64,000 bases of DNA from Bacteroidota bacterium (GCA_040389865.1 JAZJZM010000019.1:17423-81422), one strand, 5' to 3'; shown: positions 13,739 to 21,614, counted from the stretch's first letter. Notes: generated from the sequence alone by a model not told the origin. Made by a program: numbers and translations.

Positions 13739-14452
13739 ATGAAAAAATTAGTTATAGCAATAGTATTCCTTTTTTCTTTAAATGGTTTTGCTCAAAAAAC
13801 ACCGGTTGCTGGTGGTAATTCTGCATTACCTGTTAAACTAAATTCTGGTATAGATACTATGCAGTACGTATTGGGCGCTTACCTTGGACAATACATCAGT
13901 AATAACGGTTTTGTAATCAGTAACGCAACCTTATTTAAAAAAGGGCTTGAAGATGCGTTGAATGGTAAACCATTATCTGTTAATGCGGATAGCATTCTAC
14001 CAATGATGAATAAGTATGAAAAACTTGGTGGGAAGGAACGTAATAGTCAACAAGAAAAATTACTTTTTGAAAAGATCAAAGGTCAACCGGGCATGGGAGT
14101 TTTGCCTAGTGGTGTGTGTTATGCCATTGTAAAGGTAGCTACAGGAAGCCGTCCTCAGCCAACAGATTCGGTGGAAATGCATTTAAAAGGGTTTCTTGCG
14201 GATGGGAGACAATTTGAGGATACCTATCCTAAAAATACACCTTACAAAACCAGTCCGGATAATGTAATTGCGGGTATGAAGGAAATTTTACAAATTATGC
14301 CTGCCGGTTCGGTGTGGAGGGTGTATATTCCTTCTGCAATGGCATTTGGCGAGAAAGGGTTGACCGGATTGATTCCTCCATATGCTGCTTTGATCTATGA
14401 AGTGGAATTGTTAAAAGTTACAGCGAATCCTAAAAAGCAGGAGGGGAAATAA
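13739..14452 (+). CDS. Periplasmic FKBP-type peptidyl-prolyl cis-trans isomerase (FkpA-like)
   Basis: Signal peptide 'MKKLVIAIVFLFSLNGFAQ'. An N-terminal helical 'domain amino-terminal to FKBP' is present. The FKBP core is 'GSRPQPTDSVEMHLKGFLADGRQFEDTY....VIAGMKEILQIMPAGSVWRVYIPSAMAFGEKG'. Confidence 0.85.
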   Translation: MKKLVIAIVFLFSLNGFAQKTPVAGGNSALPVKLNSGIDTMQYVLGAYLGQYISNNGFVISNATLFKKGLEDALNGKPLSVNADSILPMMNKYEKLGGKERNSQQEKLLFEKIKGQPGMGVLPSGVCYAIVKVATGSRPQPTDSVEMHLKGFLADGRQFEDTYPKNTPYKTSPDNVIAGMKEILQIMPAGSVWRVYIPSAMAFGEKGLTGLIPPYAALIYEVELLKVTANPKKQEGK

Positions 14453-14529
14453 TTGATGAAGAATTCTTCCTTTAATTATGATCATTCGTTTTAATCCCCC
14501 TTACTCCCTTTTCAAGGGGGAATGAAATT

Positions 14530-19027: not shown

Positions 19028-19169
19028 GAATCAGTTTAAATTTTAAAATTTTTAAACTATGTATTTAGTAAAAACTAAATTATGAAACTTGAAAAAAAAG
19101 ACACTGTCAATTTGAAGCATAAAACTATTTAATCAAGAAACTATTTAATTAATATTCAATTTTATTGTA

Positions 19170-21614
19170 ATGAAAAAAATAATTTACTGCCTTTTTCTTT
19201 TATTCATCGTTTTTACAGATCACAAAGTATCGGCTCAGCAAAATCTGACTTTATATAATATGGAAGCCGTTCCACAGCGGATGTATGTCAACCCGGCATT
19301 AATGCCTTCTTATAGTAAAGTTTATATTGGCTTACCTATGCTGTCATCTCAATACTTAAATTTCAGCAACAGTGGCTTTAAATATTCCGATTTAATTAAA
19401 CATAGAGGAGATTCTCTTTATGTTGATTATGATAATATGCTTGGTAAGTTATCGCAAAATAATTATTTTTCTGTAGCCTATCAACCCGATCTTCTTTCAT
19501 TTGGTTTTAAAGTGAAAAAAAATTATTTCAGTTTTAACGCTACCGAAAAAGTGAATTTCCGTTTTCGTTATCCTAAAAATTTTATGGAATTTATCTGGAA
19601 AGGAAATGGTGCACTTTTAGGCGAAGAGGTGAATCTGAATTTTGGAGTAAATTTTTCGCATTACCGCGAATACGCTATAGGATTTTCCAGAGAAATAGAT
19701 GATAAGCTTACTGTGGGTGGTAAGGTGAAATATTTATATGGAATGGAAAATGTGTGGACAGAAAGATCGAATGTATCGTTAACTACCGACCCCAATTATT
19801 TTGCTATGACAGCAAAATCTGATATTAAAATTAACACTTCAGGTGTTGATAGCAGTTCTACTGCAAATATTAATGTTAAGGATTATCTCTTTAAAAAGAA
19901 GAACAGAGGAGCTGGGCTTGATCTGGGAGGGGTGTATAAATACAATGATAAATTTACGTTTTCGGCAAGTTTGATAGATCTTGGTTTTATTAAATGGAAA
20001 GATGGAGTTACCAATTATCAAAGTCATAATCCGGATGGTGAATTTACCTATCAGGGGATGGATCTAAATGAATTGGTAAATGATGATTCTACCAGTAATG
20101 CTGCAGATGTAATACTTGACTCGTTGGAAGAGATATTTAAAATTGATGAAGCACATGCTAACTATAAAACTAATTTATCAACACAAATTTATTTAGGAAC
20201 CAATTATTCCATTACTGAAAAAATCAATGCAGGTGTTTTGATATATGGCCAGATATTTGACAAGTCGGTACATCCTGGTGTTGCATTATCATACAACCAG
20301 AAGGTGGGTAGATGGCTAAATTTTTCAGCTTCTTATTCCATATATAACCGGAGTTATAATAATTTTGGTTTAGGCTTATCTCTAAATGGCCCGGTTCAGT
20401 TTTATATTGCCAGTGATAATGTGTTAGGAGCATTTTTTCCTCAAAATACAAAAAATTTACATTTGCATTTTGGAATCAACTTAATGTTCGGACGAAAGGG
20501 TAAGGATAAAGATAAGGATGGAATAGCTGATAAAAAAGATGATTGTCCGGAGATTGCAGGATTAAAAGAATTGAAAGGTTGCCCGGATAAAGATCATGAT
20601 GGTATTTCTGATAAAGATGATCTATGTCCGGATGATTCAGGATTAGTTAAACAAAATGGCTGTCCGGATAAAGATGGTGACGGCATTATTGATAAGTCAG
20701 ATGTATGTCCAAATGAAGCTGGTTTAGTTGAATTTAAAGGTTGTCCGGACAAAGATGGGGATGGCGTTATTGATAAAGAAGATAGTTGCCCTGAAGAAAA
20801 AGGGACACCTGAACTAAAAGGTTGCCCCGATAAAGATGGAGATAAGATAAGTGATAAGGAAGATGTTTGTCCCGAAGTTCCAGGATTGCCTGCATTTAAA
20901 GGTTGCCCTGATACTGATGGGGATGGTGTAGAGGATAAAACAGATCTATGTCCTGATAAGGCAGGAGCAATAATTAATAAGGGGTGTCCGGTGGCGAAAT
21001 TGTTATTAATTGATCCTCAAGGAAACACATTGAATACAGCAAAAGGTAATACGGATGGTAGTTTTACTTTTGATGGCATAGCATTTGATGAAAATATGCT
21101 GTTTAAATTAGATGGTGAAAATACCGATGGTATCAATGAATTGGGAATTATTATTGGTGCTGAATCAAGGAAAGCTGTTAGATCAGGTACTGAAAAAACA
21201 TTCCATTTTGAAAAAAATAAAACAATAGAAACAAAAGAAGTTGCTGTTATATTGGATCAAAAGGAAGCGGAAGTACTCAAAAAAGCATTTAGTAATCTTG
21301 AATTCGCTACAGGAAAAGACGTAATTATAGGAAGTTCTTATCCTTCTCTTGATGAATTGGCCGGCTTAATGGCGAAGAAACCAAATTGGAGACTGAAAAT
21401 TTCAGGGCACACGGATAACAAGGGAGATGCGGTAGCGAATTTAAAGTTATCAGAAAAACGTGCAGTGGCAATTAAAAAATATCTTATGACCAAAGGTATT
21501 GCTGACGGTAGATTTAAAGTAGAGTGGTTTGGTTCAGCAAAACCAATTGGTGATAATAAAACAGAAGAAGGACGTCAGAAAAACAGGCGCGTGGAAATGA
21601 TGATCATTGAGTAA
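19170..21614 (+). CDS. OmpA-family outer-membrane protein with thrombospondin type-3 Ca-binding repeats
   Basis: Signal peptide. The N-terminal ~430 aa are predicted beta-rich; 'QQNLTLYNMEAVPQRMYVNPALMP' is faintly PorP/SprF-like. There are 8 'GCPDKDGDGI.DK.D.CP' TSP3 repeats. The C-terminal OmpA domain is '...LKISGHTDNKGDAVANLKLSEKRAVAIKKYL...NRRVEM'. Confidence 0.8.
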   Translation: MKKIIYCLFLLFIVFTDHKVSAQQNLTLYNMEAVPQRMYVNPALMPSYSKVYIGLPMLSSQYLNFSNSGFKYSDLIKHRGDSLYVDYDNMLGKLSQNNYFSVAYQPDLLSFGFKVKKNYFSFNATEKVNFRFRYPKNFMEFIWKGNGALLGEEVNLNFGVNFSHYREYAIGFSREIDDKLTVGGKVKYLYGMENVWTERSNVSLTTDPNYFAMTAKSDIKINTSGVDSSSTANINVKDYLFKKKNRGAGLDLGGVYKYNDKFTFSASLIDLGFIKWKDGVTNYQSHNPDGEFTYQGMDLNELVNDDSTSNAADVILDSLEEIFKIDEAHANYKTNLSTQIYLGTNYSITEKINAGVLIYGQIFDKSVHPGVALSYNQKVGRWLNFSASYSIYNRSYNNFGLGLSLNGPVQFYIASDNVLGAFFPQNTKNLHLHFGINLMFGRKGKDKDKDGIADKKDDCPEIAGLKELKGCPDKDHDGISDKDDLCPDDSGLVKQNGCPDKDGDGIIDKSDVCPNEAGLVEFKGCPDKDGDGVIDKEDSCPEEKGTPELKGCPDKDGDKISDKEDVCPEVPGLPAFKGCPDTDGDGVEDKTDLCPDKAGAIINKGCPVAKLLLIDPQGNTLNTAKGNTDGSFTFDGIAFDENMLFKLDGENTDGINELGIIIGAESRKAVRSGTEKTFHFEKNKTIETKEVAVILDQKEAEVLKKAFSNLEFATGKDVIIGSSYPSLDELAGLMAKKPNWRLKISGHTDNKGDAVANLKLSEKRAVAIKKYLMTKGIADGRFKVEWFGSAKPIGDNKTEEGRQKNRRVEMMIIE

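Follow-up and report, generated by a model that had tools for sequence, protein, structure and literature searches.

Gene order and predicted products of an FKBP, DUF3352/propeller, lipoprotein and DUF5723-TSP3-OmpA gene set beside a collagen-like fibre gene in Bacteroidota

A 64,000-nucleotide stretch of DNA from a Bacteroidota bacterium (GCA_040389865.1, JAZJZM010000019.1:17423-81422), referred to here as the window, carries a gene for a giant collagen-like fibre followed on the same strand by four genes. These encode an FKBP (gene 1), a protein with a DUF3352 domain and a β-propeller (gene 2), a lipoprotein (gene 3) and a DUF5723-TSP3-OmpA protein (gene 4). The question raised by this locus is whether the four genes serve the fibre. 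A reading made from the sequence alone (the sequence-only reading) had proposed that all four are dedicated to biogenesis, export and anchoring of the fibre, with the FKBP folding it, a PorP/SprF-like outer-membrane barrel anchoring it, and the propeller protein and lipoprotein assisting. The gene order in relatives points to a different answer. The four genes probably belong to two separately inherited units that have come to lie side by side: unit A, consisting of the fibre gene and the FKBP gene, and unit B, consisting of the DUF3352/propeller gene, an optional lipoprotein gene and the DUF5723-TSP3-OmpA gene.

Conservation of gene order with and without the fibre gene

Synteny was surveyed at 78 loci on contigs from one genome per species of GTDB, which were fetched via alignment of DUF3352 homologues. 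Neighbouring genes were classified by tblastn together with iterated hidden Markov models built from the window proteins, and the counts were taken over informative loci; for the fibre these were the loci with at least 2 kb of upstream sequence (n = 62). Nearly all of the relatives are metagenome-assembled genomes (MAGs). Individual loci are identified by L numbers, and the counts are given by identity class in Table 1.

Table 1. Genes neighbouring DUF3352 homologues, by identity of the DUF3352 protein to that of the window
Identity	DUF5723-TSP3-OmpA downstream	Lipoprotein between	FKBP upstream	Fibre upstream
At least 80%	4/4	4/4	2/2	2/2
60-80%	9/10	7/10	5/15	3/15
45-60%	18/18	1/18	1/22	0/21
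Below 45% (Flavobacteriales, Bacteroidales)	6/26 (DUF5723)	2/26	0/29	0/24

A DUF5723-TSP3-OmpA gene was found downstream at 31/32 informative loci where the DUF3352 protein was at least 45% identical to that of the window. Over the whole survey, an FKBP gene was present upstream at 8/68 loci and a fibre gene at 5/62; for the fibre there were three additional cases that lay at a contig edge or retained a remnant (L010, L022, and L008). Independent gene calls with Pfam labels agreed with these counts. The pairing of DUF3352 with DUF5723 recurred in some Flavobacteriales (L049, L054, L070, and L078), and a triad of DUF3352, lipoprotein and DUF5723 was present in two Bacteroidales MAGs (L059 and L073, 30-35% identity), where the OmpA tail was missing. 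The gene content, domain identities and synteny of unit B are thus matters of observation.

The commonest upstream neighbour of the DUF3352 gene was rnhB, encoding RNase HII, which was often itself preceded by polysaccharide genes (Wzx-like, methyltransferase and GT4). It lay directly 5' of the DUF3352 gene on the same strand in L004, L012, L013, L018-L047, L051, L052, L056, L058, and L081, and this adjacency spans the clade as well as several Flavobacteriales. When the states were placed on a neighbour-joining tree of DUF3352 they were nested. The widest was rnhB-DUF3352-DUF5723 (type B)-OmpA; inside it was a clade that had the lipoprotein and a second barrel subtype, termed A; and inside that clade was a subclade, including the window, in which the FKBP and usually the fibre were found upstream. 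On this tree the order rnhB-DUF3352-DUF5723/OmpA is the ancestral one.

The dedicated module of the sequence-only reading was largely refuted by this synteny, and it is now quite improbable. The five-gene order of fibre, FKBP, DUF3352, lipoprotein and OmpA was indeed shared by the window and the relatives nearest to it (87-90% identity), and the short, hairpin-free gaps within the set would fit a single module. However, three of the four genes are kept without the fibre in most species. Synteny with the fibre had been fixed beforehand as the check, with occurrence of the genes in most genomes without a neighbouring fibre gene as the refuting outcome, and this is the outcome that was obtained for genes 2-4. 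The DUF3352-propeller family is, moreover, very large, comprising approximately 2963 clusters at 50% identity (E ≤ 1e-30), and the best 150 of these were mostly full-length. What survives of the proposal is the part concerning the FKBP, which tracks the fibre.

The layout of the locus is given in Table 2. Open reading frame (ORF) calls reproduced the four co-oriented genes with intergenic gaps of 77, 97, and 142 bp that had been described, and profile matches agreed with the domain descriptions given earlier for their products. Strong hairpins had been reported only at the ends of the set, and this was also borne out by RNA folding. The hairpin between the fibre and FKBP genes had a ΔG of -29.4 kcal/mol (z = -9.75; 0/200 shuffles equally stable) and that 3' of the OmpA gene a ΔG of -37.4 kcal/mol (z = -5.96), while the three internal gaps folded no better than their shuffles (z = -1.6, 0.0, and +1.5).

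Table 2. Features of the fibre locus and the four-gene set (positions in the window)
Feature	Position	Strand	Basis or remark
Collagen-like fibre ORF, 3892 amino acids	1629-13307	+	Context gene for the four-gene set
Terminator-like hairpin followed by a U7 run, between fibre and FKBP genes	13387-13450	+	RNA folding
Promoter-like block: TTG, spacer, TACTTTTG	13577-13617	+	Consensus match, kept in close relatives
Gene 1, FKBP, 237 amino acids	13739-14452	+	ORF call
Gene 2, DUF3352/propeller, 920 amino acids	14530-17292	+	ORF call
TATTTTTG, match to Bacteroidota -7 consensus	17354-17361	+	Consensus match only
Gene 3, lipoprotein, 545 amino acids	17390-19027	+	ORF call
Gene 4, DUF5723-TSP3-OmpA, 814 amino acids	19170-21614	+	ORF call
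Long imperfect hairpin 3' of the OmpA gene	~21617-21725	+	RNA folding
Small secreted protein, Lcl_C (DUF1566) domain	21743-22291	+	Domain search

Possible promoters were labelled using TAnnTTTG, the established Bacteroidota -7 consensus. The motif TACTTTTG is of this type and is located at 13610-13617, approximately 120 nt 5' of the FKBP start codon. The block that contains it was kept in L040 and L006, where the remainder of the spacer had diverged, and it is a putative promoter of the FKBP gene by virtue of its consensus match. The motif TATTTTTG, positioned 28 nt 5' of the lipoprotein ATG, may be an internal promoter. A scan for σ70 promoter and terminator consensus sequences gave counts that were the same as those for shuffled sequence, and such a scan is ill-suited to Bacteroidota promoters. 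Because the hairpin with its U7 run and the promoter-like block both lie between the two genes, the FKBP gene is probably not transcribed by mere read-through from its fibre neighbour. The two signals argue against co-transcription of the fibre gene with the four genes, and so against the dedicated module, though they do not prove that the transcripts are separate.

The FKBP and its relation to the fibre

The product of gene 1 begins with a Cys-free signal peptide of the Sec type, which would be cleaved around A18/Q19; both of these residues are invariant in the orthologues. An FKBP_N dimerisation domain (PF01346, 35 bits) and an FKBP_C domain (PF00254, 81 bits) were both identified above their cut-offs. 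The best match in the PDB was Legionella Mip (1fd9, E = 2.3e-30), which aligned with query residues 36-228 and so with nearly the entire mature protein, and E. coli FkpA was also matched (E = 5e-19). The match to Mip and the signal peptide lacking Cys support the assignment of the FKBP to the periplasm and to the Mip/FkpA class, as had been read from the sequence at the outset.

While the protein resembles Mip and FkpA in its two domains and signal peptide, it differs from them in its pocket, in its scores on the specific NCBIfam models for FkpA (PRK10902, 78.1 bits against a cut-off of 215 bits) and FklB (PRK11570, 91 bits against 198 bits), and in the linkage of its gene to that of a collagen-like fibre. 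Four pocket residues are changed relative to Mip (Y to L, D to E, W to M, and Y to F). The positions are those of Y26, D37, W59, and Y82 in FKBP12, which are established pocket or catalytic residues. The substitutions are conserved in 10 orthologues. With all four residues substituted, isomerase activity would be weak or altered and the role of the protein mainly that of a chaperone; the earlier suggestion of a chaperone rather than an isomerase fits with these changes. Chaperones of the Mip/FkpA class assist protein folding in general, and Legionella Mip reportedly binds collagen.

Other identities for the FKBP were tried and rejected. The score on the GldI model (TIGR03516) was 19.6 bits against a cut-off of 157.6 bits, and BamM was set aside on the NCBIfam cut-offs and because there is no lipobox. 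The case of BamJ bears on a further reading of the locus, in which the four products would be paralogues of accessory subunits of the β-barrel assembly machinery (BAM), the FKBP being BamJ, the lipoprotein BamH2, the barrel BamG2 and the propeller protein BamB or BamI. The FKBP has an FKBP_C domain in common with BamJ and scored 77.5 bits on the NCBIfam BamJ model, for which the cut-off is 100 bits. BamJ sits on the cell surface as a lipoprotein and is recognised by its lipobox Cys together with an acidic export signal (PMC12578637). The FKBP has neither, and carries an additional FKBP_N domain; since its lipobox Cys is absent, it cannot be BamJ.

The putative client of the FKBP is the fibre. 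It has a signal peptide, and G-S-T-type triplets make up approximately 1824 of its residues; globular inserts recur along the protein, which ends in a Gly_rich_2 domain (PF21722, 41.6 bits). It had been described as a collagen without Pro, and for the collagen part this is essentially right: there are 3 Pro in the 1824 residues of G-X-Y repeats, where Ser predominates at X and Thr at Y. Outside the collagen part there are 52 Pro in 2068 residues. We propose that the FKBP is mainly a periplasmic holdase or foldase for the Pro-containing non-collagen domains, or for the trimerising ends, of the fibre, its specificity being proposed through gene linkage alone. No match to a C-terminal sorting domain of the type IX secretion system (T9SS), of either type A or type B (CHU_C, Por_Secre_tail), was detected in the fibre, and it matched no NCBIfam family.

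The linkage itself takes several forms. The FKBP gene sits between the fibre and DUF3352 genes in every DUF3352 locus that bears a fibre, and on the tree the fibre and the FKBP arise together in a single subclade. The strongest single item is L085, where a gene for an FKBP orthologue (45% identical) has a 7-nt overlap with the 3' end of a gene for a PTL_trimer and Gly_rich_2 protein of 1171 amino acids, to which it would be translationally coupled. To one side of this pair are RecO and a PorZ-like gene and to the other a gene for a PKD/Ig protein, and no DUF3352 gene was found in the 2 kb downstream, up to the end of the contig. In L089 (3103-13586) and also in L090, a fibre-like gene with Gly_rich_2 and PTL_trimer domains is followed after 9 nt by a gene for an OmpH/Skp chaperone, beyond which lies an ORF exceeding 2900 amino acids. 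The arrangement is a hint that fibres of this kind are often accompanied by a periplasmic chaperone. Taken together, whether the FKBP of the window is specific to the fibre is an evenly balanced question. No relatives were found in a scan of viral contigs.

Some observations were made on the fibre genes and their surroundings. The C-terminal tip of the fibre differs among very close relatives, where it is either Gly_rich_2 (ending ...AAGYVIIYW) or an unrelated domain (ending ...NWIVFSTLTGY or ...NWILIGRN). The comparison was of the 3' ends of the fibre genes in L001, L040, L022, and L008 with those in the window, L006, L014, and L066. It suggests that the tip domains are swapped, as in adhesins and tail fibres. 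Just 5' of the fibre gene, positions 30-761 (+) hold the 3' end of a gene whose product combines PKD repeats with a sorting domain of T9SS type B (CHU_C). In L008 (664-1807), three small genes are present between the fibre-like 3' remnant and the FKBP gene, the last two of which look, by eye, like a toxin-antitoxin pair.

The window contains a second collagen-like fibre gene at approximately 61654-64000 (+), which extends past the window end, so that its downstream neighbours fall beyond the window. Its N-terminal domain (QNLGINTTG...), a homologue of the one in the first fibre, precedes G-X-T repeats. This gene explains the 50% GC content at 62-64 kb, and a minus-strand ORF of 737 amino acids there is a shadow ORF. 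Just 5' of it are a pilin-like gene with an N_methyl motif (59462-59956, +) and an adjoining gene of the type II secretion system (T2SS) F or PilC type (59959-61107, +). These two genes may be part of a cluster of the type IV pilus or T2SS kind next to the fibre gene. Nearby, the ORFs at 55641-59124 have no assignment.

The proteins of unit B

The product of gene 2 scored 78.8 bits against PF11832 (DUF3352), for which the gathering score is 26.8 bits, and so belongs to that family. In an AlphaFold2 model (pLDDT 85.9) it comprised an N-terminal helix (residues 2-28), a mixed α/β domain, which is the DUF3352 region (approximately 30-555), and a C-terminal 8-bladed β-propeller of PQQ/BamB-like type (approximately 560-920). 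The best natural Foldseek matches of the propeller (approximately 360 residues) were YxaL and BamB, with E values of 1e-9 to 1e-11 and target TM-scores of 0.61-0.67, and the BamB proteins matched included those of E. coli and Moraxella. No match to BamB was found at the level of sequence. The PQQ-like propeller superposes on BamB and YxaL; in contrast to BamB, it is fused to the DUF3352 domain of approximately 525 residues and is anchored by an N-terminal transmembrane helix instead of a lipid. Thus, the fold of BamB was recovered, but with a transmembrane helix in place of the lipobox and with the extra domain the protein was not taken to be BamB. On the basis of the model it is predicted to be a periplasmic protein anchored in the inner membrane. 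Those distant members of the DUF3352 family that were sampled were all hypothetical proteins from MAGs. A literature search returned no paper on DUF3352 and, for DUF5723, just two mentions in passing.

The gene 3 product has a lipobox in which Cys26 is invariant and is followed by I-K-D-N-F-E, so that two of the next six residues are acidic; among 45 homologues, conservation of K28 and D29 is 90% or higher. A rule for surface lipoproteins of Bacteroidota calls for two acidic residues no more than six positions from the Cys (PMC12578637). Since the residues after Cys26 satisfy this rule, gene 3 is predicted to encode a surface-exposed lipoprotein. No Pfam or NCBIfam family was matched. The AlphaFold2 model (pLDDT 85.5) was all-β, with several sandwich or jelly-roll domains, and the best fold match in the PDB was the uncharacterised Parabacteroides protein BDI_1231 (4h3w, E = 5.8e-10, Foldseek). 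The top 50 Foldseek matches consisted of BDI_1231 and generic jelly-roll proteins.

The gene 4 product has a signal peptide followed by a DUF5723 domain (PF18990, 331.6 bits against a cut-off of 26.8 bits, E = 1e-98) that occupies residues 42-416 and covers the full profile (1-376). TSP_3 repeats (PF02412, 53.2 bits) precede a C-terminal OmpA domain (PF00691, 71.3 bits). It is therefore predicted, from these domains, to be an outer-membrane protein with calcium-binding TSP3 repeats and a peptidoglycan-binding OmpA-like domain. The combination of TSP3 repeats and a C-terminal OmpA domain is also that of Bacteroidota OmpA-TSP3 proteins and of Myxococcus TraB. Unlike the former, gene 4 has at its N terminus a DUF5723 domain of approximately 375 residues and not a small OmpA-type barrel; unlike the latter, it scored 167 bits against the TraB cut-off of 700 bits. 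An identity with Flavobacterium johnsoniae BamP found no support in PMC12611786, where OmpA appears only as a loading-control antibody and the terms thrombospondin and peptidoglycan do not occur; the sequences were not compared.

Two subtypes of the barrel were recognised by their N termini. Subtype A (QQNLTLYNM..NPA; YVNPA in the window) was accompanied by the lipoprotein at 15/16 loci, and subtype B (QDFLGYINSNY..NPA) at 0/27. Mainly because the barrel subtype and the lipoprotein co-vary in this way, we propose that the lipoprotein and the subtype A barrel are physical partners. The acidic residues after the Cys and the position of gene 3 directly 5' of an outer-membrane barrel gene are shared with the SusCD and BamG/BamH pairs. 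By sequence, genes 3 and 4 fall outside the SusC, SusD, FadL and BamH families, and the complex would be one proposed by analogy.

The NPA motif had been read, as part of a 'YVNPALMP' signature, as a sign of PorP/SprF, partners of giant adhesins in gliding bacteria, and this was one argument that the barrel anchors the fibre. The motif itself is real and is conserved at the N terminus of both subtypes, but the kinship was not upheld. No match to PF11751 was obtained at E ≤ 10, nor to NCBIfam TIGR03519, and an hhalign comparison of a 20-sequence DUF5723 profile with a PorP_SprF protein annotated by Pfam (in L087) gave a probability of 1.2%. The 870 bp preceding the fibre ORF hold no ORF of at least 80 amino acids, and hence no PorP/SprF gene. 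Like PorP/SprF, gene 4 encodes a β-rich outer-membrane protein with an NPA motif after its signal peptide and lies near a gene for a giant surface protein. Unlike PorP/SprF, it has a TSP3-OmpA tail and is kept in the absence of any fibre, and the cognate cargo with a T9SS type-B domain is lacking, since the fibre of the window ends in Gly_rich_2.

The reading of the four genes as BAM accessory paralogues can also be followed through these proteins. An adjacent barrel-lipoprotein pair, BamG2/BamH2, is present in Bacteroides thetaiotaomicron, and BAM complexes use propeller lipoproteins (PMC12578637), to which the Foldseek matches of the propeller to BamB may be added. Against this, gene 3 had no PDB sequence match at E ≤ 10 and no BamH chain among its top 50 Foldseek matches, and was rejected as BamH or BamH2; the barrel matched neither FadL nor Toluene_X; the propeller protein is anchored by a transmembrane helix and is not a lipoprotein; and a canonical BamH gene is located elsewhere in relatives. 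With the FKBP also falling short of BamJ, this reading is highly improbable.

In the preferred reading of two units, unit B would be an ancient envelope module of the Bacteroidia that is independent of the fibre. Its proposed topology is as follows. The DUF5723 domain would lie in the outer membrane, with the TSP3 and OmpA tail binding calcium and peptidoglycan in the periplasm. In the lineage with subtype A, the surface lipoprotein would cap the barrel, as in other lipoprotein-barrel pairs of Bacteroidota, and the DUF3352 protein, anchored in the inner membrane, would reach the complex through its BamB-like propeller. The role of such an assembly might be general tethering or biogenesis of the envelope. 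A bolder version is improbable. In it, unit B is a new trans-envelope complex that runs from an inner-membrane anchor through peptidoglycan and the outer-membrane barrel to a surface cap, and the fibre cassette settled nearby because the Pro-free fibre, having no T9SS signal, is exported or anchored through this complex. If true, unit B would be a general platform for surface structures, and the FKBP would be a chaperone dedicated to collagen-like fibres of bacteria.

Several points weigh against the division into two units as drawn here. For unit B, no fold match was found for the DUF3352 domain in structure and sequence searches, and its products are only proposed to form a complex. For unit A, L085 is a single locus for an independent association of fibre and FKBP, and in L088, which contains a close Gly_rich_2 homologue, no FKBP gene was present within 440 nt downstream. 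It could also be that the fibre gene sits elsewhere in the genomes counted as lacking it, the window itself having a second such gene at approximately 61.65 kb. As fibre genes may lie elsewhere, missing linkage is not proof of a missing functional relation. Finally, in two species (L083 and L084, assemblies GCA_036170475.1 and GCA_036170695.1) the FKBP gene lies directly 5' of the DUF3352 gene, with gaps of approximately 80-105 nt, and no fibre gene is found there. Because the FKBP is kept without the fibre in these two loci, it could be part of unit B, or a chaperone of general function.

This last point opens an alternative in which the FKBP either serves the DUF3352 module as an accessory or is a housekeeping chaperone of the periplasm, the fibre gene is an unrelated insertion upstream, and nothing in 13739-21614 is specific to the fibre. 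The persistence of FKBP-DUF3352 adjacency in L083 and L084, the hairpin between FKBP and fibre together with the promoter-like block of the FKBP gene, and the established role of the Mip/FkpA class in general folding would all be consistent with it. However, the FKBP is absent from 60/68 DUF3352 loci and is thus not a core partner of DUF3352, it appears together with the fibre in the tree, and in L085 its orthologue is coupled to a fibre-like gene where DUF3352 was not found. The alternative is accordingly judged unlikely, and the assignment of the FKBP to unit A is retained.

The four products add new members to known families, and the envelope neighbourhood in which they are encoded is ordinary though uncharacterised. 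The distinction drawn here stops an incorrect annotation as a 'fibre biogenesis operon' from spreading, and it separates the parts of that proposal that linkage supports from those that it does not. Two leads emerge. An FKBP of the Mip type with an altered pocket that travels with giant, proline-free collagen-like fibres is a testable pair of chaperone and client. DUF3352-propeller and DUF5723-TSP3-OmpA, as a pair widespread in the Bacteroidia, are a reasonable target for studies of envelope biology, where the present data indicate no unusual mechanism.

Genes downstream of the set

The Lcl_C gene that follows gene 4 is a frequent downstream neighbour in the relatives, though not a universal one. 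It was also found in the fibre-less loci L011 and L027, so it is not specific to the fibre. In L087 (6014-9232) an Lcl_C domain forms the C-terminal tip of a protein with collagen and PTL_trimer regions, whereas in the window it stands alone.

Next come genes for a secreted protein of 231 amino acids (UCP028175-like in relatives) and a YtnP-like lactonase with a metallo-β-lactamase fold, which together occupy 22499-24199 (+). Both are found 3' of the OmpA gene at most loci with at least 50% identity, and the conserved backbone therefore extends past the four genes. An operon of MlaE, an ATP-binding cassette (ABC) ATPase and MlaD, encoding a transporter of the lipid-asymmetry type, is located 2.8 kb downstream at 24397-26923 (+) and is kept in the closest relatives only. 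Further along the window, a baeRF family 3 protein is encoded at 27737-28819 (+), and a CheB-CheR-PAS-histidine kinase-receiver fusion of 1836 amino acids adjoins a PAS hybrid kinase of 1134 amino acids at 41434-46944 (+).

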